Shown: positions 12,454-25,799 of the stretch, in pieces
Layout: each line of letters begins with the position of its first letter
Numbering within the stretch: position 1 is the stretch's first letter
Sequence record: DRR723986_6279
DNA length: 64,000 nucleotides
Reading direction: 5' to 3' (one strand)
Notes under the pieces: model-generated
Told to the model about the DNA's origin: nothing
Seen by the model: the letters and a program-made list of their open reading frames with translations, nothing else
Database searches by the model: none
Made by a program: the position numbers and the translations under genes

Positions 12454-14988
12454 ATGATGAAAAGCTTATTGCTGGTTCTCATATTATTTGCTGGGATTAC
12501 GTTTTCACAAGATCTTAAGAAGATTCAGAAAAAATTTCAAATTGAAAACTGTGGAGACAGTGATTATCTTATTGTAAAACGAAAAGGTAAATCTGGGATT
12601 TACAATAAGCAAAATCAGACTTTTGACATTCCTTTATCTGAAAGTCAGTTTTATTTTTTTGAAGACTATGGTTTACTTTTTCAATTTAGTGAGGAAGATG
12701 AGCTATTGGTTAGAAATTTACATTCAGAAAACTTCCCAAATGAGGTACTTAATTCCAAAGCAAAGGACTATTTTTCTTTAAATCAAGAAACGTATTATCA
12801 AAACCGACCAGGAGATTATTACCTTAAATCTGGCAAAATTCACATTGAAAGCCGAAATACAGGGAGACTAGAAATAAGTAAGGATAGTACAAGCATCCTC
12901 AATGAAAAAATTTTAGAGACTCCATCTTTTATACAACAAACTTTTGGGGTTGAAAAAACGGGAAACCTTCTGGTTGTGACTAATTTAAGAAACGACTCAT
13001 ATGACCCGAATCCTAAACCTATCATGAGTATTCAATATCCAGGATACGATTCAATAAATGACATGGGGGAAGTTTTATATTATCCAAATCCAAAAGGCTT
13101 TCAGAAATCTGGAGTATTTGATTTGCTAAAACGAAAATGGATTATTGAACCAGAATATTTCAGAATTCTTAGGTTAAATGATTTGATTTTCTGCAATCAG
13201 CAGGATGCTCACAATAATGAATTGTACTTCCCTGGTTACGGGCACTGGGATATTTATAGAATTGAAAATAATAATCTTCAATTAATCAAATCGAATGTAA
13301 AGTGGGCTGCTGAAATTCCATTTAAAGAATTATTCGAAAATGGGAACCACGAATTCATCCAAAAAGATAGTAGCTATGTTCAATTTACTCAAAATGGTCG
13401 AAAAGGTTTGATGCGGTTATCGCTGTTTTATAATTCGGATTATCTGTTAGATGGAGAACCCGCGTACGCATCACTAACATTGCGTCATGACACTTTAGTT
13501 GAAGCGAATTATGATTTTATTGGCAATATAGGGGATGGTGGTATTGATCCTGAATATTTCCTTTACAATGAAAATGGACTGAAATATGTCAATTTAGAAG
13601 ACGATAGAGTACTAACGAACGTTCAAGGAAAAAATAAGATGTCTATCCGTAAATATGGAAATGATGAACAAAGTTGGAACGATTTCACCTACTGGATAAT
13701 TGATGACAAGACGTACACAGTATCTTCTGATAGTCTCATTTATTACTCTTCAACCATTCAAAGACCTAGCGACAGGCTTTTAGAACGAAAGTCCATAGAA
13801 ATCATCAATGATTCATTAATTTATTTAGAGTACTGGATAAAACAGGGCACTTATTGGGAGCCCGTTTATGATATTGATTACAACTATAAGGTAAACGAAG
13901 ATGGTGAACAATTATATTATCCACCTGATCCTGGAGAGTTTGAGACAGGCGTATTTAACCTGAACAGCAACGAATGGTTTTATGATCGTGAATATGCATG
14001 GATAAGTGCATGCCCGGATAAATTTCGTTTGTGCTATCCTGATTTAGATAGCACGGGATATTACACTACTTATCTTTTTAGAATTGATGATTTAAACAGA
14101 AATGTAATTGAAGAGGAAATTAAACCAAATGACTTGAAGATGCCATTTAAAGATGCTTTCCCAAAGTATAAGGTGGATAGCGTTTACTCTATAAGTGGTA
14201 TAGTTCCTCATTTTTATGGATATTTCGAATATCAAGGAGGCATGGGCGTTTACTACAAAGGTTATCCTGAAATATTAATGGAGCCGCGTGATTACGCCTA
14301 TTATAATAATGATTTTAATTTTTATTTTTCGATTAAGGATGATTCGTGTTTTGTCAACTTCTATGCATTTGAACACAATACTCACTTAAAAGACATAGCT
14401 AAATTGAGCATTTTACCTGCTACAAATATGGATCCATACAAGGGAGATTTATTCTTAGAATTGGATAAAGGAAAAAACTGTCAAATTATTCATTTGAAAA
14501 GTCCAGAATCATATGTGCAAATGGGCTTTGATCGTGATGAATATCGCAATTTTTATTTTCAAGAAATTGCTCACCAAAATTGGGCGTTTTCGGTGAATAG
14601 ATTAAATGATAGCTTAATTTACATTGAAGATTGGTCAGCAGATGAAAATATAGAAAACGTGCCGCCCTTAATGAGTGAATTATATCCCGGTGAAGATTCG
14701 TTAGACGCCAATGGAGAATGGGTTTACCCACCATTAGAACCTGGATATAATCGATCAGGAATTTATAACTTTAAATCAAAATCATGGTGGCTAGAAAGGT
14801 CTTATTACAAAATCGAATTCGCTGAAGATCAGTTATTATTGCGAAAGCCAGTACTCAAAAAAGATGGATTGATTGACTATTATCAATTCAAAATTATCAA
14901 CCTTAATAATGAAGTTATATGGTCTGGTGACGATTACAACGAACTACCAGATGAATCACCCTTTTTTGAGATTTTGGTGGATGATTAA
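12454..14988 (+). CDS. Large exported hypothetical protein with three internal repeats
   Basis: 844 aa, signal peptide, repeated module ending (S/T)G(V/I)(F/Y)-x6-W. Confidence 0.65.
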   Translation: MMKSLLLVLILFAGITFSQDLKKIQKKFQIENCGDSDYLIVKRKGKSGIYNKQNQTFDIPLSESQFYFFEDYGLLFQFSEEDELLVRNLHSENFPNEVLNSKAKDYFSLNQETYYQNRPGDYYLKSGKIHIESRNTGRLEISKDSTSILNEKILETPSFIQQTFGVEKTGNLLVVTNLRNDSYDPNPKPIMSIQYPGYDSINDMGEVLYYPNPKGFQKSGVFDLLKRKWIIEPEYFRILRLNDLIFCNQQDAHNNELYFPGYGHWDIYRIENNNLQLIKSNVKWAAEIPFKELFENGNHEFIQKDSSYVQFTQNGRKGLMRLSLFYNSDYLLDGEPAYASLTLRHDTLVEANYDFIGNIGDGGIDPEYFLYNENGLKYVNLEDDRVLTNVQGKNKMSIRKYGNDEQSWNDFTYWIIDDKTYTVSSDSLIYYSSTIQRPSDRLLERKSIEIINDSLIYLEYWIKQGTYWEPVYDIDYNYKVNEDGEQLYYPPDPGEFETGVFNLNSNEWFYDREYAWISACPDKFRLCYPDLDSTGYYTTYLFRIDDLNRNVIEEEIKPNDLKMPFKDAFPKYKVDSVYSISGIVPHFYGYFEYQGGMGVYYKGYPEILMEPRDYAYYNNDFNFYFSIKDDSCFVNFYAFEHNTHLKDIAKLSILPATNMDPYKGDLFLELDKGKNCQIIHLKSPESYVQMGFDRDEYRNFYFQEIAHQNWAFSVNRLNDSLIYIEDWSADENIENVPPLMSELYPGEDSLDANGEWVYPPLEPGYNRSGIYNFKSKSWWLERSYYKIEFAEDQLLLRKPVLKKDGLIDYYQFKIINLNNEVIWSGDDYNELPDESPFFEILVDD

Positions 14989-15314
14989 TTCCCCTCTGGC
15001 GCAAGCTTCAAAACAATACCATCAATCTCATCCGAAATTTGAATTTGACAACCCAATCTAGAATTGTCTTCAACGAAAAAGGCCTCATCAAGCATATCCA
15101 ATTCGCCATCTGATTGCTCAGGCAATTCATGATCTGATTCTAAATAGCATTGACAAGTGGCACACATAGCCATACCGCCGCATCTGCCTTCAACAGGAAG
15201 TTCATAGGAGCGGCACACTTCCATAACATTCATATTCATGTCTGTTGGTGCTTCTAAATCGTGAGTTACTCCTTCGCGATCAATTATGTGAATGGTAATC
15301 ATGTTTTCTGCCAT
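14985..15314 (-). CDS. 2Fe-2S ferredoxin (adrenodoxin-like)
   Basis: CGGMAMCATCQC and SRLGCQ. Confidence 0.93.
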   Translation of the reverse strand: MAENMITIHIIDREGVTHDLEAPTDMNMNVMEVCRSYELPVEGRCGGMAMCATCQCYLESDHELPEQSDGELDMLDEAFFVEDNSRLGCQIQISDEIDGIVLKLAPEGN

Positions 15315-15348
15315 ACTACAAATTTAAGAAGAAAAGTAAAGATAATCG

Positions 15349-15409
15349 CCCTTCGAGAGCCTCAGGGCTCGAGCTTAACAAAGTAAGGGACACTGAGGTT
15401 CTCGAAGTG
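15349..15409. repeat. Inverted pair of REP-like elements
   Basis: CCCTTCGAGAGCCTCAGGG (15349-15367) ... CACTGAGGTTCTCGAAGTG (15391-15409). Confidence 0.7.
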
Positions 15410-15417
15410 TACCGATT

Positions 15418-16431
15418 CTATTCAAATCCGTTCACCCCATTCACAGTTGTATACTTCAATACATTTTTCTTGTCTGGATAAATTCTCGCAAAAGCAGATT
15501 GAACCGCTATTGTACCTTCATGGAATCCGCAAAGAATTAGCTTCAACTTACCTTCGTAAGTATTTACATCACCGATAGCATAGATGCCTGGTCGGTTAGT
15601 TGAATAATCTCTTGTATCTACTTTAATTGCATTCTTTTCAATCTCTAATCCCCAAGTGGCGATAGGTCCTAAAGTTGGTTTTAAACCGAACAACGGCACG
15701 AAGTGGTCAGCATCTTTTGTGATTTCGCTACCATCTTTGTGCTTGATATTCACAGAGTTCAACTTTCCGTTTCCGTTTAATCCAACAACCTCAGCTTCTG
15801 TAATCAAGTTGATTTTTCCAGCATCAGCTAAATCCATTACTTTTTGAACAGAATCTAAGTGTCCTCTGAAAGAAGATCTTCTGTGCACTAATGATAATTC
15901 TGATGCTATATTTTGCTCAACCAAGTAAATCGACCAATCTAAAGCAGAGTCTCCTCCACCGGCAACCACCACTTTTTTGTCTTGATAAAATTTAGGTTCC
16001 TTGATGATGTATTCTACCCCATTCTCTTCAAAATCCTCCAGCTTTTCAACTGGTGGTTTTCTTGGTTCAAAAACACCTAATCCACCAGCGATCATAACAA
16101 TTGGCGCCTTATGTTTTGTACCTTTATTCGTAGTAACGATAAATTGATCATCTTCTACCTCCTCAATGGTCACAGCCGACTCACCCAAAGTGAACCCTGG
16201 TTTAAATGGTGCAGATTGCTCCATTAATTTATCTACCAATTCACCTGCATCTACTGTGGGATAACCTGGAATATCAAAGATGGGTTTCTTTGGATAAATC
16301 TCTGTTAACTGCCCACCAGGTTGGGGTAAAGAATCTATTAAGTGGCATTTTAGTTTTAATAATCCCGCTTCGAATACCGTGAAGATCCCAACAGGGCCTG
16401 CACCAATTATAATTATATCTGTTTCAATCAT
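15418..16431 (-). CDS. Ferredoxin--NADP+ reductase, thioredoxin-reductase-like
   Basis: GAGPVG, GGQLTEIYP, GGGDSALDW, HRR, GD; no CxxC; adjacent to ferredoxin. Confidence 0.88.
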   Translation of the reverse strand: MIETDIIIIGAGPVGIFTVFEAGLLKLKCHLIDSLPQPGGQLTEIYPKKPIFDIPGYPTVDAGELVDKLMEQSAPFKPGFTLGESAVTIEEVEDDQFIVTTNKGTKHKAPIVMIAGGLGVFEPRKPPVEKLEDFEENGVEYIIKEPKFYQDKKVVVAGGGDSALDWSIYLVEQNIASELSLVHRRSSFRGHLDSVQKVMDLADAGKINLITEAEVVGLNGNGKLNSVNIKHKDGSEITKDADHFVPLFGLKPTLGPIATWGLEIEKNAIKVDTRDYSTNRPGIYAIGDVNTYEGKLKLILCGFHEGTIAVQSAFARIYPDKKNVLKYTTVNGVNGFE

Positions 16432-16483
16432 TTTTATTTTTGTTTAAGAATGTGATAAAACATTCTCATTCTGTCTTCGTTTG

Positions 16484-16596
16484 CCCTTCGGCAAGCTCAG
16501 GGTGACACTCAGACTGACATTCGTCAGACGATTAGAAGACAAATTTAAAGTTCACGAATTTACAAAGAAAAGGTGTCATCCTGAGCTTGTCGAAGG
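16484..16596. repeat. Inverted pair of REP-like elements
   Basis: CCCTTCGGCAAGCTCAGGGTGACAC (16484-16508) ... GTGTCATCCTGAGCTTGTCGAAGG (16573-16596). Confidence 0.75.
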
Positions 16597-16618
16597 ACCT
16601 TTTCTTAACTTCAATTTG

Positions 16619-17785
16619 CTAATATTTTGGTAGTGATGTATCAATTTTATCCGCCCAATCAAGTATACCGCCCTCTAAATTATAAAGATTCGTAAACCCA
16701 TATTTGTCCTGCAACAACTCTATGACGTCTGCGCTTCGTTTTCCTGACCGGCAATGCACCACAACTTTATAATCAGACGATATTTCATCAATGTGTTCAA
16801 GCACATCATTTTGAGGGATCAACTGTCCGTTAATGTTGACGATTTCATATTCAAACGGTTCTCTGACATCAATTAATTGAATGTCTTCTGCCCCATCTAA
16901 CCATGATTTTAGAGTCGTCACATCTATGCCTTTTACGTTTTCGCGCTTTTCCTTTTTATCAATACCTAAGCCGCAGAATTGCTCATAATCTATCAACTCT
17001 GTTAAGGTTGGATTCTTGCCATTGAGAGGATTATCTGGATCTTTCTCAATTTTTAAGGTTCGAGTTTCAAAATTGAGGGCATCAAACAAAAACAATCTGC
17101 CAGACAAATTATCTCCAACTCCTGTAATGACCTTAATTACTTCATTTGCTTGAAGACTTCCTAAGATTCCAGGTAACACTCCAATTACTCCTCCTTCTGC
17201 ACAAGAAGGCACTAAACCTGGAGGTGGCGGTTCTGGAAAAAGGTCTCGATAATTTGGTCCGGTATTGCCATGTGCATCCCCGTAATTAAAGACCGTTACT
17301 TGCCCCTCAAATCTGAATATAGATGCGTATACGTTCGGCACTTTCAGTAAAACAGAGACATCATTCACCAAATATCTGGTTGGAAAATTATCCGTTCCAT
17401 CAGCAATTACATCATAATTTGAAGCAATTTCAATCGCGTTTTCAGATGTAAAAGTGGTGTTGTATGTATTGATCTTAATATGTGGGTTCTGTGCTTGAAT
17501 TCGCTCTTTGGCTGCTTCAACTTTTGGTCTACCAATATCTGCTTGCGTAAACAATACTTGCCTTTGAAGGTTTGAATCCTCAACTACATCAAAATCTACA
17601 ATACCAATTGTACCAACACCTGCAGCCGATAAATATTGTAGCAAAGGCGCTCCTAAGCCACCTGTTCCTATGACTAAAACTCTCGCCGCCTTTAACTTTC
17701 TCTGACCTTCAATATTGAATTCAGGAATAATTAAATGACGACTGTATCGTTCAAGTTCTTCTTTTGAAAATTTAATATCACTCAT
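16619..17785 (-). CDS. moeB: MoeB/ThiF adenylyltransferase with C-terminal rhodanese domain (MoeZ-like)
   Basis: RYSRHL, GTGGLG, SNLQRQ, DNFPTR, PSCAEGGV; rhodanese DVRE...HCRSGKRS...LEGG. Confidence 0.93.
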   Translation of the reverse strand: MSDIKFSKEELERYSRHLIIPEFNIEGQRKLKAARVLVIGTGGLGAPLLQYLSAAGVGTIGIVDFDVVEDSNLQRQVLFTQADIGRPKVEAAKERIQAQNPHIKINTYNTTFTSENAIEIASNYDVIADGTDNFPTRYLVNDVSVLLKVPNVYASIFRFEGQVTVFNYGDAHGNTGPNYRDLFPEPPPPGLVPSCAEGGVIGVLPGILGSLQANEVIKVITGVGDNLSGRLFLFDALNFETRTLKIEKDPDNPLNGKNPTLTELIDYEQFCGLGIDKKEKRENVKGIDVTTLKSWLDGAEDIQLIDVREPFEYEIVNINGQLIPQNDVLEHIDEISSDYKVVVHCRSGKRSADVIELLQDKYGFTNLYNLEGGILDWADKIDTSLPKY

Positions 17786-17789
17786 TTTA

Positions 17790-17926
17790 TTTTAGATTTT
17801 AGACCATTCCGACAAGTCGGAACTGCTAGATCAAAGACCGCTCTCTCGGTTGAACCGAGATCGCTTTTAGATTTGGTCTTGCAAGACTTCATCTGAAAGT
17901 CCCGAAACTTCGGGGCGATCTATACT
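17790..17926. repeat. Composite palindromic intergenic repeat (TAGATTTTAGA family)
   Basis: Aligns with 18978-19070; hairpins TCCGACAAGTCGGA, CTCGGTTGAACCGAG, CCCGAAACTTCGGG. Confidence 0.75.
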
Positions 17927-18205
17927 CTAATTTTTTCCTCCCGCAATTGCCGGAATTATACTTATTACATCTTCATCTTTCACGGGAGTCTCTTCGTTTT
18001 TTAGGGATTTGATATCTCTATCACCCACATAAATTTTCAAAAACGATTGAAGTGTTCCGCACTGCTTAAAAAGATGTTTACTTAAATCGGGATGCAATTC
18101 TCCTAACTGAGTAATTGATTCGCCTACCGATTTACCTGAAGTAATAATCTTCGCCTTGTTATCTGTAAATTTACGTAAAGGCGTTGGAATAATTATAGTT
18201 GCCAT
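17927..18205 (-). CDS. ThiS/MoaD-family sulfur carrier protein (CysO-like) with C-terminal GG-KN
   Basis: IIIPTPLR start, D..SIIPAIAGGKN end, 92 aa. Confidence 0.9.
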   Translation of the reverse strand: MATIIIPTPLRKFTDNKAKIITSGKSVGESITQLGELHPDLSKHLFKQCGTLQSFLKIYVGDRDIKSLKNEETPVKDEDVISIIPAIAGGKN

Positions 18206-18210
18206 TTTTT

Positions 18211-18497
18211 TTTAGATTTTAGATCGCTTCGCTTCTAGACACAAGACCGTTCACTTTGTTCACTGTTAGACTTGGCTTCCCAAACCTCAATAGAAAACTT
18301 TCATAAAGCCTTATTTTATCTACAAGTTTTAGCATTGTTATTTTTTTATCTAGATTCTAGACCGCTTCGCTCATAGACTCTAGACCGTTCATTCCATTCA
18401 CTCTTAGATTTTGTCTTGCAAAATTTAATCTAAGAGTGACCCATGGGAACGATCTATAATCTATCAGCGATCTCGGCTCTGCCGAGAAAGCGGTCTA
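18211..18497. repeat. Two direct copies plus one inverted copy of the TAGATTTTAGA-family repeat
   Basis: TAGATCGCTTCGCT..AGACCGTTCA near 18220 and 18358; 18428-18497 is an imperfect reverse complement of 18358-18408. Confidence 0.75.
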
Positions 18498-18974
18498 TGA
18501 TCTAATTATTATTGATTGTTGAATAAACTTTTTATTTGATTTCTTCCAAGAGTTAATGAGGGTATCTCCATTCCCATCTACAGAAACGATTGCGTACGCA
18601 AAAACACTTTGCGCAAATTCTAAATCGTGTTTAGACGGAATAGCCGGATAATCAGGATGCGAATGATAAATACCAATTACATCTAGCTTATTTTCCAAGG
18701 CATATGCTTCTACCTTGAGATAATCAAGACCATGAATTTCAAACTTTCGTTCTTGTTCTTTTGCTACATTTTCAACTGGATAAACTTCAGATACCAAATC
18801 TGAGTCTTCTGATTTCTTGCCGAGTAAAAAGCCGGCGATCTCATATGGATATCCGTTTCTCGCTACTTGCACTAATTCTGCTTCAATGGCTGCGTTATAC
18901 CTTAACCCAACTTGCTCTTTTTTCGTAATATCAACTACATTTAAGTCTAAATATTCTTCTACTGTTGCTTTCAT
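18495..18974 (-). CDS. JAB/MPN+ (Mov34, M67) metallopeptidase, Mec-like
   Basis: YPYEIAGFLLG and YHSHPDYPAIPSKHD (E-x-HSH-x7-S-x2-D JAMM motif). Confidence 0.92.
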   Translation of the reverse strand: MKATVEEYLDLNVVDITKKEQVGLRYNAAIEAELVQVARNGYPYEIAGFLLGKKSEDSDLVSEVYPVENVAKEQERKFEIHGLDYLKVEAYALENKLDVIGIYHSHPDYPAIPSKHDLEFAQSVFAYAIVSVDGNGDTLINSWKKSNKKFIQQSIIIRS

Positions 18975-18977
18975 ATT

Positions 18978-19070
18978 TTTTAGAGTTTAGATCGTCTCGG
19001 CTAAGCCGAGACTGCTAGATTAAAGACCGCTCACTCGGTTGCACCGAGTTCCCTGAAAGATTCAAGATTT
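18978..19070. repeat. Composite palindromic intergenic repeat (TAGATTTTAGA family)
   Basis: Shares ACTGCTAGAT.AAAGACCGCTC.CTCGGTTG.ACCGAG with the 17790 copy. Confidence 0.75.
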
Positions 19071-19178
19071 GAAATTGTACACTCGTATGTGTATTAACCC
19101 ATTCAGCTCTTTGCTCTATACTCTTTAATCTATGTTCTTATTTAATGTTTTATTTTTCACATTTCAGTTTAATCTTCA

Positions 19179-20123
19179 CTAGAATAATTCAATCCCTAGC
19201 TCAGCATAAACCTCTTCGTATTTTGATCCGTCATCTGCTAAAATGGTAACCACCATTCCCTCGTTTAATGCCTCAGCTATTTGTTTTGCGCCAACTAAAC
19301 TTGCTGCCGAAGACGGACTTATTTTTAAATCATATTTTTGGTAAACTGTCTGAATCATTTTTAAAGCCGCTTCAGAACTTACCTCTACATTTTTATCGGC
19401 TAAATCTTGGTCAAAAATTCCAGGAACTTTTGCCGTTTCCAGATGCTTCCAACCTTCTAATCCATGCATAGGTGATTCGGGCTGCATCTGGACAAGACAG
19501 ACTTCATCTGATTGCATTTTCAAATATTTACCTACTCCTACGAATGAACCTGTCGTCCCAAGAGAAGCGGCAAAATGAGTCACCTTACCTTTTGTTTGTC
19601 CCCAGATTTCTGGTGCAGTAGATTCAAAATGTTTTTTCCAGTTTGCCTCATTGTTGTACTGATCTGCATAGAAATAGAGCGCTGGTTCTGCTTGAAAAAT
19701 TTCTTTCGCAACAATCTGCGCTCCATCCGTTCCTTCAAATGGTGAAGAGTAAATGATTTTCGCTCCCAATTCTTTAAGAATATCCTTACGTTTTTGACTT
19801 GCATTTTCAGGCAAAACAAGCGTGAATGGAATACCCAATTCTTTGGCAATTGTAGCATAAGCTATTCCAGTATTACCACTGGACGCATCTAACAAAATTT
19901 TGTGCTCGTTCAGCTTACCTGCTTCAATAGCAGATTTAATAATACCATAAGCCGCTCTTGCTTTTACCGATCCGCTTAACTGTTGCCATTCAAGCTTTGC
20001 AAATAGTTTAACATTCGCATTTGAAAGCAATTCTGAAAAGTCGAAAAGAGGTGTGTTTCCAATCTGCTTTTCTAACGCAGCCAACTTCAATTCTAGTTCA
20101 GTATTTAAATCAACTGTTTCCAT
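19179..20123 (-). CDS. PLP-dependent cysteine synthase family protein (CysM-like)
   Basis: IGNTPL, SGSVKAR (PLP Lys), SSGNTG, GTTGS, DDGSKY. Confidence 0.9.
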   Translation of the reverse strand: METVDLNTELELKLAALEKQIGNTPLFDFSELLSNANVKLFAKLEWQQLSGSVKARAAYGIIKSAIEAGKLNEHKILLDASSGNTGIAYATIAKELGIPFTLVLPENASQKRKDILKELGAKIIYSSPFEGTDGAQIVAKEIFQAEPALYFYADQYNNEANWKKHFESTAPEIWGQTKGKVTHFAASLGTTGSFVGVGKYLKMQSDEVCLVQMQPESPMHGLEGWKHLETAKVPGIFDQDLADKNVEVSSEAALKMIQTVYQKYDLKISPSSAASLVGAKQIAEALNEGMVVTILADDGSKYEEVYAELGIELF

Positions 20124-20688
20124 TTACTAACTCTTTTGTAAGCTCATTCAACGTTTCTAATTTTCTCTCAAACCCTCCATTTAATTTTAATCTTAAAGAT
20201 TGAAGTTCACCGATCACCTCATCTAACGAATCGGGCAACTCGGCTTCAAAAAACTGTCTTAATCTTTTCGCTAGAACAGGCGACTTTCCGTTTGTGGATA
20301 TAGCCAATTTCAAATCTCCTTTCGTAACAATTCCGCCTAAATAAAAATCACATAAAGCTGATTTATCAGCCACATTGAGCGGAATACTTTTTGAATTTGC
20401 CAGATACTTAATGTGATCGTTTAATTCGGGATTATTAGTTGCGGCAATCACCAAGTGTTTCTCATTCAAATCAGTATCCCTGAAAGACCGAACTGACAAT
20501 TTAACATTAGCAGCAGCATCAGCGATTTTTCTAACTTCAACACTCACCTTCTCAGCAATCAAATGTAACTGTGCTTTAGGGGAAGATTTCAGTAAAAAGT
20601 GTAATTTCTCTTCAGCAATCTCACCTCCTCCGATTAGTAAAATCTTTACTTGATCAGCTTTTATGAATATGGGAAATAGTTCGTTCAT
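20110..20688 (-). CDS. Precorrin-2 dehydrogenase / sirohydrochlorin ferrochelatase (CysG N-terminal type)
   Basis: LFPIF, IGGGEIA, NVAD...CDFY, AISTNGKSP; start moved to MNELFPIF because the upstream part lies in a repeat. Confidence 0.88.
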   Translation of the reverse strand: MNELFPIFIKADQVKILLIGGGEIAEEKLHFLLKSSPKAQLHLIAEKVSVEVRKIADAAANVKLSVRSFRDTDLNEKHLVIAATNNPELNDHIKYLANSKSIPLNVADKSALCDFYLGGIVTKGDLKLAISTNGKSPVLAKRLRQFFEAELPDSLDEVIGELQSLRLKLNGGFERKLETLNELTKELVNGNS

Positions 20689-20693
20689 TTCAT

Positions 20694-20762
20694 TAGATTT
20701 TAGATGGTCTATGTTCTCGATACATTCTTTCATTTCATTCCAGAACACTCGAACAAACCATC
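20694..20762. repeat. Intergenic imperfect hairpin / REP-like element
   Basis: TAGATTTTAGATGGT...TGTTCTCGA...TCGAACAAACCATC. Confidence 0.55.
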
Positions 20763-20773
20763 TTGTGTCTACT

Positions 20774-21529
20774 TTAATTCAAATAGGATGCGGTTTGATT
20801 CACAATTTCTTGTTCTGATGTTTGGTTCAGCACTTCGCCTACAACAATAATTGCTGGAGCTGCGACCTCAGACTGTTCTGCCAAATAAGTGATCGTACTT
20901 ATGTTTCCACGCACCAGTTTTTGATCTGGTCGAGAACCATTTTGAATAATGAGTACGGGTAATTCATACCTCCCATACCCTTTGAATACATCAACAATCT
21001 GCGGCAGTTTTCGAACGCCCATTAATATGACTACAGTTGAATTAGATTGAGCCGCCAAGACGATATCGTTGTTGAATCCGTCTCCAACTTTTGAAGCAGT
21101 TAAGACCCAGAACCCATCTGAAATTCCTCTTTGAGTAAGTGAAATATTATTGATAGCAGTTAATCCTGTAGATGAAGAAATTCCAGGAACAACTTCTGTT
21201 TCTAAACCATTTTTTTCGGCAAAAGCGATTTCTTCATAACCTCTTCCGAAAATAAATGGATCTCCTCCTTTTAATCGAACCACCTCACCATAAATCAATG
21301 CATAAGAAACGATAAGTTGATTGATTTTTTCTTGAGAAAATGAAGGCTTACCCCCTCTTTTGCCCACAAAAATTTTGATGGCATTTGGTTTAATGAAGTC
21401 CAAAATATCTGAGCTCACCAAGGCATCATACAGCACTACATTTGCTCTTTGTAAAACCTTTATTCCTTTAAATGTGATGAGGTCTTTATCACCCGGACCC
21501 GCACCTACTAATGTTAATTTACTTTTCAT
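20774..21529 (-). CDS. cobA: Uroporphyrinogen-III C-methyltransferase
   Basis: LVGAGPGD, VVRLKGGDPFIFGRG, VVPGISS. Confidence 0.93.
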   Translation of the reverse strand: MKSKLTLVGAGPGDKDLITFKGIKVLQRANVVLYDALVSSDILDFIKPNAIKIFVGKRGGKPSFSQEKINQLIVSYALIYGEVVRLKGGDPFIFGRGYEEIAFAEKNGLETEVVPGISSSTGLTAINNISLTQRGISDGFWVLTASKVGDGFNNDIVLAAQSNSTVVILMGVRKLPQIVDVFKGYGRYELPVLIIQNGSRPDQKLVRGNISTITYLAEQSEVAAPAIIVVGEVLNQTSEQEIVNQTASYLN

Positions 21530-23597
21530 CTTTAATATTTTTAATCAGTTCATCAATAGCCAGGTGAAACTGCTCAGCTTGCTGCACAAATTCTCTAGCG
21601 AACTTTTTGTTTATATCTGTTTCTTTTTCGTTCAATAATTCTTTAAAACTTGAAGCCAAAAACTTGCTTTTAATCAATGGATAATACGCTTCAAAGGCCT
21701 CTGAAATCTGATGTTTAGAATTGGTTTTTTGACCGTTCTTCACCAAGAAAGATTTAGCAGATTGGATAAGTGAGGAGTAAGCAGTATAAACAGCATCTCG
21801 ATACTTCCCTTGCTCAATGAAATATTGTGCTTCTTCTACTTTCTCATAAGCTTCGTATAAGAGTGTGGTAACCAAATCTATTTTAACTCCCGCACATTCT
21901 CCAATTCCGATTTCTGGTTTGAATTTTTCTGATGCCCCCCAATCCAACAATTCATCTTCATTCGATAATTCTACATCTGCGACATCCTTCAATAAGTCAT
22001 AGAAATAGATCTTTTCTCTTCTCAAATAATACGTATTGAACTTATCATCATTAGTTCTATTTTTTAGATAATCATCTAAAACAATAGTGATTACACTCAA
22101 CACCCTTTTTGAGGGAACTTTAATTACTTTATCTCCAAATCTCGATTCACCATTTCCGTAATTTGCACCTCCCAATAATACTTGAAGTGCCGGATAGGTT
22201 AAACCATCTTTTTTAATGGTTGATCCATGAAATCCGATATCTGAAACTGAATGCTGTCCACATGAATTCATGCAGCCACTCATTTTTATATTGATGTCTC
22301 CTTCAAGAATAAGCGATTCATATTTTGAGTACAACAGTTGCTCAATTTCAGATGCCGCTATATAAGTACCTGTTATCCCTAAATTACACGTGTCGGTTCC
22401 TGGGCATGCTGTGATATCTGTAATGGCGTTTGCTCCGAAATCTGCATATCCCAAGTTTGATAATCTGTTATAAAGATTGGCCAAGTATTGTTCAGGGATA
22501 AATCGAATCAAAATGTTTTGCTCAATGGTGATTCGAGCAGCATCACTAGAATAAGTAGAAACAATTTCTGCTAAAATTCTAGCTTCATCTGAGGAGATAT
22601 TCCCATTTCTGATCTTCACAATTACTGCAACAAATCCTTTTTGCTTTTGGCTCAAAACATTCGTTTGCTTCCATTTATCAAAAGCTTCAAAATCTGTAAC
22701 TCCTTCAATCGCCTCATCAGTAATATTGTTCAAGTAAGTTGGAGTAGACACCAGCTCAAAATCATTTCGAACAATGCTAAACTCATCTTCAATTTTTGAG
22801 ATAATAGCTTCTGCCCCTTCTGATTGAATTAAAAATTTAAACCTTGCTTTGTTCCGCTTATTACGCTCTCCGAATTTGTCAAACACGCGAACAATTGCTT
22901 CTGCATAGGCGATCAAATGGTTCTCTAATAAAAACTCTTTTAAGACAATTGCTTGATGTGGCTGAGCACCCAATCCGCCTCCAAGCAACAACTTGAATCC
23001 TTTTTGTCCATCCTTTATTTTTGGAATCACGCCCAAATCATGCATGTATCCTCTTCCTAAATCTTTATCAGATGCTGATAAGGAAATTTTGAACTTTCTT
23101 CCCATCTCTCCACCAACTGGGTTTCTCAAGAAAAATTCAAACAATGACCAACCATAAGGCGTGACATCAAAAGGTTCGTCTTTATCAATTCCGGCATAAG
23201 GACTCGCAGTGATGTTACGAACCGTATTTCCACATGCTTCACGTAAGGTGATTTCGTCTTCTTCTAGTTCTGCCCATAATTGCGGGGTATCATCTAAGCT
23301 CACATAATGAACTTGAATATCTTGACGAGTTGTTAAGTGCAGATTACCATTTGAATAAGTATCCGAAACCTTTGCGATACGTTTCAATTGCTGAGGCGTT
23401 ATAATTCCTAACGGCAATTTGATTCTAACCATTTGCACGCCTTGTTGCCTTTGGCCGTATACGCCTCTAGCCAACCTGAGTGAGCGAAATGAATCTTCAT
23501 CTATTCTACCTTCTTTGAATAATCTTATTTTTTTCTCCAGGTCGATTATGTCTTTTTCAACTACTGGATTTTCTAATTCTGTTCTAAAACTTTGCAT
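21519..23597 (-). CDS. Siroheme/4Fe-4S nitrite/sulfite reductase (probably ferredoxin-dependent sulfite reductase) with C-terminal HEPN-like domain
   Basis: TTRQDIQ, RKFK, ACPGTDTC, SGCMNSCGQH; start moved to MQSFRTE because the TTG start lies in a terminator. Confidence 0.9.
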   Translation of the reverse strand: MQSFRTELENPVVEKDIIDLEKKIRLFKEGRIDEDSFRSLRLARGVYGQRQQGVQMVRIKLPLGIITPQQLKRIAKVSDTYSNGNLHLTTRQDIQVHYVSLDDTPQLWAELEEDEITLREACGNTVRNITASPYAGIDKDEPFDVTPYGWSLFEFFLRNPVGGEMGRKFKISLSASDKDLGRGYMHDLGVIPKIKDGQKGFKLLLGGGLGAQPHQAIVLKEFLLENHLIAYAEAIVRVFDKFGERNKRNKARFKFLIQSEGAEAIISKIEDEFSIVRNDFELVSTPTYLNNITDEAIEGVTDFEAFDKWKQTNVLSQKQKGFVAVIVKIRNGNISSDEARILAEIVSTYSSDAARITIEQNILIRFIPEQYLANLYNRLSNLGYADFGANAITDITACPGTDTCNLGITGTYIAASEIEQLLYSKYESLILEGDINIKMSGCMNSCGQHSVSDIGFHGSTIKKDGLTYPALQVLLGGANYGNGESRFGDKVIKVPSKRVLSVITIVLDDYLKNRTNDDKFNTYYLRREKIYFYDLLKDVADVELSNEDELLDWGASEKFKPEIGIGECAGVKIDLVTTLLYEAYEKVEEAQYFIEQGKYRDAVYTAYSSLIQSAKSFLVKNGQKTNSKHQISEAFEAYYPLIKSKFLASSFKELLNEKETDINKKFAREFVQQAEQFHLAIDELIKNIKDEK

Positions 23598-23609
23598 AAT
23601 AATTTCAAT

Positions 23610-23644
23610 AAAAAAAGCCCTGACAAGCAATGCTCATCAGGGCT
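23610..23644 (-). terminator. Intrinsic terminator of attenuator unit 2
   Basis: AGCCCUGAUGAGC-AUU-GCUUGUCAGGGCU plus U-tract, ending about 12 nt before the reductase ATG. Confidence 0.85.
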
Positions 23645-23670
23645 GATATATAAGTAAACCAATAAATAGG

Positions 23671-23748
23671 TCAATATCTTTTCCGTCCAAGCTTTTTTAA
23701 GCGGATACACATCATGCAACAGCACATATTTTTAGTTCTCATCTTCAT
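23671..23748 (-). CDS. Putative Cys/Met-rich leader peptide 2 (25 aa)
   Basis: MKMRTKNMCCCMMCIRLKKLGRKRY; seven consecutive Cys/Met codons; A-rich sequence before ATG. Confidence 0.8.
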   Translation of the reverse strand: MKMRTKNMCCCMMCIRLKKLGRKRY

Positions 23749-23803
23749 TTTTTTCTTCTTTGGCGATTTGGTGTCATCCAGACTATCGCGATACTTTTTT
23801 ATC

Positions 23804-23835
23804 CTCCCCCCTTTATTCCCTCTCCAAAGGGGGAG
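23804..23835. repeat. GC-rich REP-like hairpin between the two attenuator units
   Basis: CTCCCCCCTTT-ATTCCCTCTCC-AAAGGGGGAG. Confidence 0.5.
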
Positions 23836-23839
23836 AAAT

Positions 23840-23873
23840 AAAAAAAGCCCTTCGTTAACGAAAGGCTTTTTTT
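23840..23873 (-). terminator. Intrinsic terminator of attenuator unit 1
   Basis: AGCCUUUCG-UUAA-CGAAGGGCU plus U-tract, preceded by an A-tract. Confidence 0.85.
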
Positions 23874-23900
23874 AGAGTATTATATATGGATATAGTTCTA

Positions 23901-23960
23901 TCAGCCCTTCCTTTCGGAACAGTTCATACAACACATCATATTTTTAGCAGTAATTTTCAT
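23901..23960 (-). CDS. Putative Cys/Met-rich leader peptide 1 (19 aa)
   Basis: MKITAKNMMCCMNCSERKG; six of codons 8-14 are Cys/Met; 3' end complementary to the terminator 5' arm. Confidence 0.8.
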   Translation of the reverse strand: MKITAKNMMCCMNCSERKG

Positions 23961-23969
23961 TTCTGAGGC

Positions 23970-24000
23970 CAAAGGTAAATTAAAATTTTTAATCTCCAAA
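23970..24000 (-). promoter_or_regulatory. Bacteroidota housekeeping promoter of the sulfur cluster
   Basis: TTTG (24000-23997), 19 nt, TACCTTTG (23977-23970); fits the TTTG-N19..21-TAnnTTTG consensus. Confidence 0.8.
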
Positions 24001-24007
24001 TTTTTAT

Positions 24008-24024
24008 TCTACTTATTTGGTAGA
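24008..24024. promoter_or_regulatory. Candidate palindromic operator
   Basis: TCTAC-TTATTTG-GTAGA just upstream of the -33 box. Confidence 0.4.
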
Positions 24025-24176
24025 TTTTATATTTTAATCAATTTTTGTGAGCAACATGACTAAATAAAATTGCACCATAATGTAGATGATCGATACGCTT
24101 TTGGGCTTAGTTTTTTTTGAAATTTCGAGTTTATTAATTTCCAGAAGTTTATCTTTGTCCTCAATAGCCCAAGACT

Positions 24177-24842
24177 ATGAGATTTCTAATTACATGTCTA
24201 TTAATGACTAATTCCATTCTAGGATTTAGCCAAACTGACCCCAAAGACAACGACAATTTTTATAGACGCAGAATAATTGTAGGAGGTGGAATTAATTTCT
24301 CCATGGTCGAAAGTTATGCTGGGGCTGGCATAGATGCTTTCATTGGAATTCGGTTAAATCATGGAAAACAAATAGTAGGAGTTGGTGTAGAATCCATATT
24401 CGCTCTTAACAAGAAATCTATTCCAGTTAATACTCAAGAATTCTTCACAAATGATACTATCCCGTCATTTATTAATTATTCACTCTACAGTTTCCCATAT
24501 CGTTTAGAAATTTATCATTACTTAACCGACCCTCTCAATCGAAAAACAACTCTTTCTGTCGGTTTTAGAATTGGCCCTGCAATACATCTGACAAATTTCA
24601 ATATACCCCAAAGAACAATCGGTCCTAAACCATCAGACAGCGGGTTCCCGCTATATGGTTTGAACTCTGCAATAGCAATACGTGGTGAATATGCATTCAA
24701 AAATAAATATCTATACCTTGAACTAAATAGTGGATATCACTATATTAATAAGGGCGTATACGCTGTGAATAAAAATCATGCTTTCAGCTCAAGCATTAAA
24801 ATTGGCTTAGCTGGAAACTTTGGACCAAAACTTAAAAATTAA
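24177..24842 (+). CDS. Hypothetical outer-membrane beta-barrel-like protein
   Basis: Signal peptide, Gly/aromatic amphipathic strands; TATCTTTG promoter box upstream. Confidence 0.55.
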   Translation: MRFLITCLLMTNSILGFSQTDPKDNDNFYRRRIIVGGGINFSMVESYAGAGIDAFIGIRLNHGKQIVGVGVESIFALNKKSIPVNTQEFFTNDTIPSFINYSLYSFPYRLEIYHYLTDPLNRKTTLSVGFRIGPAIHLTNFNIPQRTIGPKPSDSGFPLYGLNSAIAIRGEYAFKNKYLYLELNSGYHYINKGVYAVNKNHAFSSSIKIGLAGNFGPKLKN

Positions 24843-24844
24843 CT

Positions 24845-25237
24845 ATGAGAAATTCAAAAATTTATTTATTCGGTATAATTCTGGGTTTAACATTTTCATG
24901 TACCAAGAAACCAGAAGCATGTATCGTTGAAAAAGATATAACTGCAGCAAAAGGTGACACTATAAGATTCACTAGTTGTAGTGTTAATGCAAGCACTTAT
25001 TTATGGAAAGTGAATGATAATTTTTTAAATCGTTTTGACGATCCGTTTTTTGGAGATCATTTTGTTGTGGATGGGGGTTACGGCTGTGAGGATTGGATTG
25101 AACTGTCCTTTTTTAATGCCGGAACATATGAGATTAATTTAAATAATCCCGTCTTGAAAGAAGGAACCTGTTCTTCATCTCAAAAATCTTGGAGCAGAGA
25201 AGACAAGACGAGTGTCACTGTTAATATTACCGAATAG
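24845..25237 (+). CDS. Hypothetical lipoprotein (PKD-like)
   Basis: Lipobox TFSC; IRFTSCSVNASTYLW. Confidence 0.6.
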   Translation: MRNSKIYLFGIILGLTFSCTKKPEACIVEKDITAAKGDTIRFTSCSVNASTYLWKVNDNFLNRFDDPFFGDHFVVDGGYGCEDWIELSFFNAGTYEINLNNPVLKEGTCSSSQKSWSREDKTSVTVNITE

Positions 25238-25302
25238 TCTTCCAGTATCCAAAATCTAGCAAACTTAAAGTCTTAATTTAGTTTTGACTTCTTGAAAATG
25301 TT

Positions 25303-25338
25303 ATGCCCTGTCTGATATCGACAGGGCATTTATTTTTT
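25303..25338 (+). terminator. Intrinsic terminator
   Basis: ATGCCCTGTC-TGATATC-GACAGGGCAT plus T-rich tail. Confidence 0.7.
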
Positions 25339-25412
25339 ATGGATTTAACTAGAATAAATATAATGCAACCTTTTCAATGCCCTTCACATCAGAATAAAAA
25401 CATATATAAACA

Positions 25413-25799
25413 ATGAAGAATAAAATTATTATTATCGGCATTTCACTCATCACATTAGTGTCGTGTAACAAAGAAGAAGTCAGACCAGATCAACAAGATT
25501 TACAAATTAGATTTGAGAACATTGGAGATTCTAAAATTAAAAATTTCAAGTTTGAAGGGAAAAGGATTGGAAATATCCAGCGGAACTCAGTAACCAGATA
25601 TTATTCATTTGATCAAATTCAACATTATGACAATTATATTCAAGCTGAAGCAAGTGTGAACTCGGACTATGGGACAGTGGAACATTGGAATAATAATACG
25701 ACTGAAGGATTAAAAACAATTTCATCCGGAAAACATACTATACAACTCTCTTTAATGTATGGTTGTGGAGTTGGATTTATGCTTCAATTGAAAAAATAG
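25413..25799 (+). CDS. Hypothetical lipoprotein
   Basis: Lipobox LVSC followed by NKEE. Confidence 0.65.
   Translation: MKNKIIIIGISLITLVSCNKEEVRPDQQDLQIRFENIGDSKIKNFKFEGKRIGNIQRNSVTRYYSFDQIQHYDNYIQAEASVNSDYGTVEHWNNNTTEGLKTISSGKHTIQLSLMYGCGVGFMLQLKK

Follow-up and report, generated by a model that had tools for sequence, protein, structure and literature searches.

The window analysed here is a stretch of 64,000 nucleotides (nt) from sequence record DRR723986_6279. On its minus strand a putative sulfite reductase operon is preceded by a leader in which two small open reading frames (sORFs), rich in cysteine and methionine codons, are each followed by an intrinsic terminator. This leader is read as a pair of classical ribosome-mediated attenuators in series with Cys and Met control codons, a reading to which a probability of about 0.8 is given. 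The arrangement unites a leader ORF downstream of a promoter, a cluster of codons for the products of the pathway and an intrinsic terminator before the structural gene, as is typical of such attenuators. The original prediction, which was made from the letters of the window alone, had proposed Cys/Met attenuation by two units in series, and it is supported by the comparative and folding evidence presented below.

Under the proposed mechanism, transcription would start at a promoter of the Bacteroidota sigma-A type, about 5 nt before the first sORF (sORF1). When charged Cys-tRNA and Met-tRNA are both plentiful, a translating ribosome would reach the stop codon of sORF1 and cover the antiterminator strand, upon which the first terminator (T1) would fold and transcription would end. 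If either charged tRNA were scarce, the ribosome would be expected to stall on the M-M-C-C-M block, the 1:2 hairpin would open and the antiterminator strand would pair with the 5' arm of T1, allowing RNA polymerase to read through. The same decision would be repeated at the second sORF (sORF2) and the second terminator (T2), directly before the sulfite reductase gene. The scheme supposes that both sORFs are translated and that the efficiency of termination would follow the sulfur supply. Overall read-through would be the product of two steps, which would give a lower basal leak and a sharper response. Less confidence is placed in the details of unit 2 and in the gain from two units than in the mechanism itself, and the gain is purely conjectural.

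Anatomy of the two units

All elements of the leader lie on the minus strand and are given in window coordinates. The promoter (23970-24000) consists of TTTG (24000-23997), a spacer of 19 nt and TACCTTTG (23977-23970). A consensus promoter had been predicted at this place and is indeed present, although it is of the Bacteroidota type and not a sigma-70 promoter. It is followed by sORF1 (23901-23960), with 19 codons and a stop, for which the predicted peptide is MKITAKNMMCCMNCSERKG. The control block of this peptide is M8 M9 C10 C11 M12 N13 C14, with three Cys and three internal Met codons. T1 (23840-23866) is made up of an 8-bp stem (23866-23859 with 23854-23847), a TTAA loop and seven U (23846-23840), with an A tract directly 5' of it. 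The second unit begins with sORF2 (23671-23748), with 25 codons and a stop, encoding the predicted peptide MKMRTKNMCCCMMCIRLKKLGRKRY; its control block is M8 C9 C10 C11 M12 M13 C14, and the whole of sORF2 contains four Cys and four internal Met codons. T2 (23610-23643) has a 12-bp stem (23643-23632 with 23628-23617), an ATT loop and seven U (23616-23610), and there are 12 nt between its end and the reductase ATG (23597).

The two units of sORF and intrinsic terminator between the promoter and the reductase ATG were accordingly found in the sequence as they had been described. The likenesses between them that had been noted earlier also hold, namely gap-free peptide identities at positions 1, 2, 6, 7, 8, 10, 11, 12 and 14, a 15-mer common to both terminators (recovered by repeat comparison) and a distance of 230 nt both between the stop codons and between the U tracts. 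This last spacing is a property of the one genome, as the stops are 223 nt apart in the close relative G006. Over their first 44 nt the two sORFs are 75% identical.

Both terminator hairpins fold better than dinucleotide shuffles of the same sequence (z of -6.6 for T1 and -5.6 for T2, with 0 of 200 shuffles equal), and the same applies to the whole units (z of -6.5 for unit 1 and -3.8 for unit 2, 0 of 200 equal for each). A standard terminator scan reports T2 and misses T1, probably because the A tract of T1 pairs with its U tract; T1 is recovered by a separate custom scan. The whole 64-kb window was also scanned for sORFs of 8-50 codons with at least two Cys and at least four Cys plus Met codons inside seven codons. 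Four sORFs reach a Cys/Met score of at least 4, the highest values (6 and 7) being those of sORF1 and sORF2; the remaining pair, with a score of 4 each, are minus-strand frames located where longer reading frames occupy the plus strand.

The switch predicted for unit 1 was examined by folding the RNA as far as the T1 loop while a masked stretch of 28 nt, representing the ribosome, was placed at each codon in turn. The minimum-free-energy fold of this unit consists of two hairpins, the first being the 1:2 hairpin, or anti-antiterminator (23884-23941), formed between the Cys/Met codons and the nucleotides that follow the stop, and the second being T1. In the absence of a ribosome, or with one at codons 2-4, the 1:2 hairpin is predicted to form and to sequester the antiterminator strand, while the 5' arm of T1 is unpaired or has weak pairing with the start of the RNA; a ribosome at codon 5 gives an intermediate picture. 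When the A site is at any of codons 6-13, a range that includes M8 M9 C10 C11 M12, the 1:2 hairpin is lost and GGAAGGGCU (23911-23903) pairs with seven of the eight bases of the T1 5' arm. With the ribosome at codon 15 through to the stop, this pairing is blocked. The antiterminator 5' strand (GGAAGGGCT, 23903-23911) comprises the last codons of sORF1 and the first base of its stop codon, and it mimics the 3' arm of T1 as a direct repeat and pairs with the 5' arm. The predicted energy of this duplex is -11.4 kcal/mol, whereas shuffles average -4.8 (z of -3.6, equalled by 0.3% of 300 shuffles). As modelled, unit 1 is a full four-segment attenuator with trp-type logic. For unit 2, a weak candidate for the antiterminator 5' strand (AGCTTGGACGGA, 23682-23693, codons 19-22) is the predicted partner of the T2 5' arm for ribosome positions at codons 9 and 12-15, and the antiterminator of this unit is considered weak in this genome.

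Two further observations concern the region around T2. The motif TTTACTTA is present at 23651-23658, and the same motif or a near copy occurs in seven other loci (L021-L023 and L025-L028), 5-20 nt upstream of the proximal terminator. It recurs in several genera despite differing flanks and is left unexplained by the attenuator model. It was also seen that 10 nt at the end of sORF1, stop codon included (23899-23908), form a perfect complement to part of the 5' arm of T2 and its flank (23639-23648), 250 nt downstream. This complementarity is kept in the close relative G002 and broken by one base in G006. The match could represent a long-range antiterminator or a by-product of the 3' arms shared by the terminators.

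Conservation of the leader among relatives

The reductase, with its first 250 residues as the query, was found in 35 of 121 genomes of the family, and the best 30 loci together with the window formed a set of 31. As DNA, the whole leader was detected among 41 relatives in two genomes of the same genus, G006 (94% identity) and G002 (87-90%). The set was then judged by the presence of a Cys/Met sORF, defined as one with at least two Cys and at least four Cys plus Met codons in seven codons, within 400 nt upstream of the reductase. Such sORFs are found on the sense strand in 20 of the 31 loci and on the antisense strand in 0 of 31, and 200 mononucleotide shuffles gave a mean of 0.185 loci with a maximum of 2. 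By this count the leader feature is beyond chance. The original prediction had pointed to the regions upstream of the reductase genes of relatives as a place where it would stand or fall, and this search found the sORFs, the terminators and the promoter to be kept across genera.

In the 22 sORFs picked solely for a CC pair, 14.9% of the 482 residues are Cys and 14.3% are Met with the initiator excluded, against a background of 1.5% and 1.4% in six long ORFs of the window; the set omits the near-identical L021, L022, L034, L038 and L050 and keeps L049, a probable false positive. The tenfold enrichment of Met was outside the selection criterion. Between close relatives sORF2 differs by an in-frame indel of 6 nt (G006) and by a synonymous change of a Cys codon, TGC/TGT (G002), while the base of the T1 stem shows a compensatory change from A-U to G-C in both. 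The distance from the stop codon to the U tract is 43-57 nt in 26 of 27 units and 72 nt in the remaining one, and every unit has its own terminator.

These observations bear on the possibility that a factor other than the ribosome, for instance a protein, a small RNA or an RNA that binds a small molecule, controls the two hairpins as regulated terminators or as elements of RNA stability, with the sORFs being by-products of GU-rich structure. In line with such a view, the stretch of Cys/Met codons takes part in the predicted hairpins of both units, the unit 2 antiterminator is weak, and both the TTTACTTA motif before T2 and the palindrome at 24024-24008 described below stand outside the ribosome model. 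It would, however, leave unaccounted for the frame, ATG and stop that are kept in the sense strand of 20 of the 31 loci and in the antisense strand of none, the in-frame indel and synonymous codon change, the constrained distance from stop to terminator and the enrichment of Met codons, which had not been selected for, and no Rfam family reaches its gathering score in the region. This explanation is considered improbable.

Apart from the Cys/Met block, which is retained, both the sequence and the length of the peptides (15-32 residues) vary, and orthologues of sORF1 found at the same place in seven relatives have diverged in their peptides. This lack of conservation outside the block speaks against functional Cys-rich micro-proteins, such as a metal- or redox-binding peptide or the precursor of a modified peptide, of which unit 1 would be a small independent gene. 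That sORF1 has a promoter and a terminator of its own would suit a micro-protein, as would the C-terminus E/I/L-R-K-G that recurs in several genera, but the codons for this C-terminus fall within the antiterminator strand. Moreover, no genes for modification or export are found nearby, the neighbours being those of sulfur assimilation, and in relatives T1 and sORF2 can be separated by just 3 nt. A micro-protein is therefore regarded as very improbable, and as the less probable of these two alternatives.

The attenuator reading gains further support from the pairing partners of the terminators. A MAFFT alignment of eight unit-1 sequences lost the register of the stem, and tests on each sequence were used instead: in 27 units of the 31 loci the 5' arm of the terminator was paired against the sequence between that terminator and the first Cys pair, and the best duplex was compared with 300 shuffles. 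An antiterminator strand better than 95% of the shuffles was found in 15 of the 27 units, and all 15 such strands fall within roughly the final ten codons or overlap the stop, even though the arms differ between genera. By these duplex tests, the predicted antiterminator strand is changing together with the terminator arm between genera. In a coarser version of the ribosome-mask test, the antiterminator was present on stalling and absent with the ribosome at the stop codon in 18 of the 27 units.

Tandem units are present in eight of the 31 loci, namely the window, L021, L022, L023, L024, L025, L026 and L029, which belong to five genera, and a single unit in 12. The stems of the terminators differ between genera, and the T1-type and the T2-type are each kept as distinct types; because the two types are conserved separately across genera, the tandem state appears to be old. 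In L027 and L028 (genus g37) the promoter is kept and unit 1 has apparently been lost, with a six-codon ORF without Cys as the remnant in L028. This loss, the greater frequency of the single proximal unit (12 of 20 loci) and an old duplication, with which the 75% identity over the first 44 nt would fit, could indicate that the proximal unit (sORF2 and T2) regulates alone and that unit 1 is a decaying or redundant duplicate. On the other side, unit 1 is the best-defined four-segment switch in this genome and is kept in five genera (g1, g43, g6, g37 and g5) with its own terminator type and with significant antiterminators. Regulation by the proximal unit alone is accordingly given a low probability, similar to that of the non-ribosome explanation.

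Promoter, series arrangement and points of doubt

Over the 800 nt that precede the reductase ATG a TAnnTTTG box occurs just once, in the promoter before sORF1. A promoter downstream of the terminators, which would have taken the operon out of the control of the leader, had been raised as a possibility in the original prediction; no -7 box was found between T1 and the reductase gene. The same promoter arrangement is seen in the tandem loci L021-L023, L025, L026 and L029, with the -7 box alone in L024, and the distance from the end of the -7 box to the ATG of sORF1 is 8-9 nt in all eight tandem loci. In the available part of one report, the Bacteroidota consensus TAnnTTTG is located at -12 to -5 (PMC9723704). 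From this placement and the position of the -7 box, transcription is predicted to start near 23965, which would leave a 5' untranslated region (UTR) of 4-5 nt before sORF1. The gap between the T1 U tract and the ATG of sORF2 is short in six of the other tandem loci, being 19 nt in L022, 31 in L023, 5 in L024, 3 in L025, 14 in L026 and 16 in L029. Since the sole TAnnTTTG box precedes sORF1 and these gaps span only 3-31 nt, sORF2 would be transcribed solely by read-through of T1.

In the window this gap is 91 nt, because of an insertion of about 66 nt (about 23770-23836) between T1 and sORF2 which is common to G006 and absent from G002. It holds a GC-rich palindromic element (23802-23836, minus strand), look-alikes of which, 33-50 nt in length, are scattered in related genomes. 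One of these, G015, gave 11 matches to the whole DNA query, mostly to this palindrome, which is present as a single copy in the window. The element probably lies outside the switch and looks like a small mobile repeat, similar to repetitive extragenic palindromic (REP) elements, that landed inside the transcribed leader.

A different palindrome of 17 bp (TCTAC, 7 nt, GTAGA; 24008-24024, minus strand) is located a few bases upstream of the -33 element of the promoter. It is invariant in G006 and has one difference in G002, and similar palindromes occupy the corresponding position in many genera, loci with a single unit among them. A second copy is found in G045, about 80 nt upstream of a divergent gene of the TauE/SafE family. 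As a marker of a regulon, the palindrome pattern gave 18 matches in five genomes against 10 for a reversed control, and the site at the TauE/SafE gene was the sole extra one that looked meaningful. The palindrome is probably the operator of a sulfur regulator, whose presumed binding would place a control of initiation on top of the attenuators.

Contigs of four metatranscriptome runs were searched for transcripts of the leader. T2 is bridged by two contigs from two studies with more than 31 letters on each side, X16 (23413-23658, 0 differences) and X17 (23471-23701, 4 differences). They give a weak hint that transcripts cross T2 from upstream. The further contigs X18 and X19 represent relatives (90-99% alike) and look-alikes of the repeat.

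A number of points weigh against the attenuator reading. The contigs bridging T2 come from RNA libraries and possibly represent carry-over of DNA, and they show neither ends nor strand. The leader is missing from 11 of the 30 relatives that carry the reductase (L035, L036, L039-L042, L044 and L046-L049); in six of these 11 loci a -7 box is found near the gene instead. The relatives are akin, by which the locus counts overstate independence, and the shuffles used for conservation and for the antiterminators preserved mononucleotide content alone. In 12 of the 27 units no antiterminator beats 95% of the shuffles and nine of 27 fail the ribosome-mask test. In most units, moreover, the antiterminator is predicted even without a ribosome, which would imply three-segment rather than four-segment designs. 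In the window, the unit 2 duplex (-5.7 kcal/mol, z of +0.8) is not above shuffles, the Cys codons themselves become the predicted partner of the T2 5' arm in folds that lack a ribosome or have one at the stop, and the unit fails the coarser on/off mask test, which its orthologues in G006 and G002 pass. Finally, the palindrome kept upstream of the promoter suggests a protein regulator, and the leader need not be the main control.

Known systems, distribution and the controlled operon

A scan of 22500-25000 with all 4227 Rfam models (E up to 10) gave no family at its gathering score, including the Thr, Phe, His, Trp and Leu leaders and the S-adenosylmethionine (SAM) riboswitches. The best match was BTnc231 on the opposite strand (37.3 bits against a threshold of 80.4), and the leader families scored 26-29 bits against 55, with Thr_leader at 28.5 and Phe_leader at 29.4. 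The original prediction knew of no tandem Cys/Met attenuator in Bacteroidota; among open-access papers and preprints no description of Cys or Met leader-peptide attenuators in this phylum was found, whether tandem or single. Ribosome-mediated attenuation itself is known, and the evidence supports the Cys and Met control codons, the Bacteroidota host and the duplication in series as its new features here.

The leader-peptide attenuators of the trp, his, thr, leu, ilv and pheA operons are known from Proteobacteria, and these classical systems are said to be reviewed by Gollnick and Babitzke in 2002. The leader of the window resembles them in having a leader ORF with codons for the pathway, a terminator before the first structural gene and an alternative antiterminator, with a 1:2 hairpin in unit 1. 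More than one kind of control codon is also found in thr (Thr and Ile) and ilv (Ile, Leu and Val). It differs from them in its Cys and Met codons, its Bacteroidota TAnnTTTG promoter, the lack of a Shine-Dalgarno sequence, the predicted 5' UTR of about 5 nt and the presence of two units. For Bacteroidota, the accessible part of one study speaks of strong clues of leader-peptide attenuation upstream of amino-acid operons in Flavobacterium psychrophilum (PMC9723704), and sORFs reminiscent of leader peptides have been described in Bacteroides (PMC7366714).

Cysteine-rich leaders have been described elsewhere. As far as the available text of the report goes, the polycysteine leaderless sORFs of mycobacteria act on translation (Canestrari et al., 10.1101/834739), and they share with the present leader a Cys-rich sORF near the 5' end of the transcript, a cysteine operon and a readout of the cysteine supply by ribosome stalling, which is predicted here. 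Membership of this class of translational attenuators (10.1101/834739), as it appears in that text, was considered and rejected, each sORF of the window being followed by a strong hairpin and seven U. In the part of the study available, no terminator hairpins were found with the cys leader peptides of actinobacteria (Seliverstov et al., 2005; PMC1262725). In comparison with these leaders, as portrayed there, the window has a strong intrinsic terminator for each sORF, Met codons mixed in and two units. Closer in type is uORFC-8-2, upstream of cysS in Rhodobacterales, for which the accessible portion of the article predicts an attenuator with two adjacent Cys codons and a terminator stem with a U run (Brewer et al., 2021; PMC8632094). 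Going by that portion, it differs in preceding the gene for Cys-tRNA synthetase, in belonging to alpha-proteobacteria and in being a single unit without Met codons, and it too is a prediction.

In another known tandem leader, that of mgtCBR in Salmonella, the two leader ORFs reportedly read different signals, whereas both units of the window have the same kind of control codons. According to the available part of the work on mgtCBR, its leader has two short ORFs, and their translation controls which of the alternative stem-loops form and whether transcription proceeds into the coding region (Lee and Groisman, 2012; PMC3641672). From that account, tandem attenuation with two short ORFs in one leader is the common ground, and the difference lies in a role in Mg2+ transport and virulence, not in amino-acid synthesis.

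The distribution was followed in a wider set of 80 named reductase loci. A strict unit was defined as an sORF (at least two Cys and at least four Cys plus Met in seven codons) with its stop 35-80 nt before the U tract of a terminator. Strict units were found in 15 of the 80 loci, with seven more having a looser unit. The 15 comprise 12 records of Mucilaginibacter, a metagenome-assembled genome (MAG) of Cyclobacteriaceae with two units (L081), a MAG of Crocinitomicaceae that is the same as L028 and one record that is the same as L022. As L028 is grouped with the family of the window, this family is probably Crocinitomicaceae. No such unit was found in the records of Emticicia, Spirosomataceae and Chitinophagaceae or in most records of Flavobacteriaceae among these 80 loci. 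It should be noted that L051, from a record titled as a gammaproteobacterial MAG, is identical to the G002 locus. That contig is probably mis-binned, and the names of MAG records need care.

Given about even odds is a broader proposal, namely a widespread and as yet undescribed class of Bacteroidota attenuators in which a single leader peptide would respond to the charging of Cys-tRNA as well as of elongator Met-tRNA. In one flavobacterial family two such units would act in series behind a regulator-bound promoter, the first of them on a nearly leaderless transcript. If this is true, these would be the first Met-codon-sensing leader peptides, and sulfite reduction and the CysO-type cysteine pathway would be under a three-layer, ultrasensitive control. 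Gene control in Bacteroidota is poorly charted, with promoters and translation start signals unlike those of model bacteria and with few cis-acting RNA switches known. A conserved switch recognisable from sequence would help to explain how costly sulfate reduction is tuned in abundant aquatic and soil bacteria. It would also extend to cysteine and methionine the amino acids read by leader peptides through intrinsic terminators, and would offer a natural test case of two identical attenuators in series against one. For annotation, gene finders miss these sORFs, and the terminators could be mistaken for operon ends.

Within the family the device seems, from pattern searches, to be confined to the reductase operon. 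Three Cys-codon patterns matched 57 loci in five family genomes, with some places matched by more than one pattern, and the combination of sORF and terminator was found in the reductase leaders alone. A wider Cys/Met regulon was considered for these five genomes and rejected, as the remaining pattern loci lie out of frame inside genes or have no terminator. None of the 12 PF01053 (metY/metB-type) genes of the five genomes has a Cys/Met sORF within 1500 nt upstream. A separate observation was made upstream of metX in G045 (L141, 1455-1765, minus strand), where a SAM riboswitch aptamer is found (70 bits). About 150 nt past the aptamer there is an ATG followed by eight Cys codons and a stop, and the last codons serve as the 5' arm of a hairpin with a short run of U behind it. 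The riboswitch may here be backed by a Cys-codon attenuator further along the same leader, or the codons may have arisen by chance from a GU-rich stem.

The genes downstream of the leader form a putative operon of nine genes (14985-23597, minus strand) as identified by Pfam and NCBIfam scans, their grouping into one operon being suggested by strand and spacing. The first three encode a NirA-type sirohaem reductase (23597-21519), a uroporphyrinogen-III methyltransferase and a protein of the sirohaem synthase N-terminal type. They are followed by a CysM-like cysteine synthase, a JAB (Mec-like) protease, a MoaD/SAMP/CysO-like carrier (18205-17927), a MoeZ-like adenylyltransferase with a rhodanese domain, a TrxR/FNR-like flavoprotein and a 2Fe-2S ferredoxin. 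By this gene content the products are sulfide and cysteine, and the sulfide presumably also feeds methionine. The gene set at 14985-20123 (minus strand) is presumably the CysO/CysM/Mec/MoeZ sulfur-carrier route to cysteine of Mycobacterium tuberculosis, and a CysO/CysM-type pathway is likewise found in the mycobacterial cys operon. Here, in Bacteroidota, the genes of this route are combined with those for sulfite reduction and for the synthesis of sirohaem.

None of the equivalog cut-offs is reached by the reductase, and the label of sulfite reductase rests on context; in some relatives, as judged by eye, it comes after genes with CysN- or CysH-like product ends. On the other side of the leader lie three divergent ORFs (24177-25799, plus strand) of 221, 130 and 128 residues, none of which has a Pfam match, nor the 221-residue one an NCBIfam match. 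It was also observed that the reductase (692 residues) has a C-terminal extension (residues 579-654) matching HEPN (PF05168, E of 1e-6). Such an extension is unusual in a sulfite reductase, and the frames of about 690-760 residues in most relatives suggest that it is conserved.

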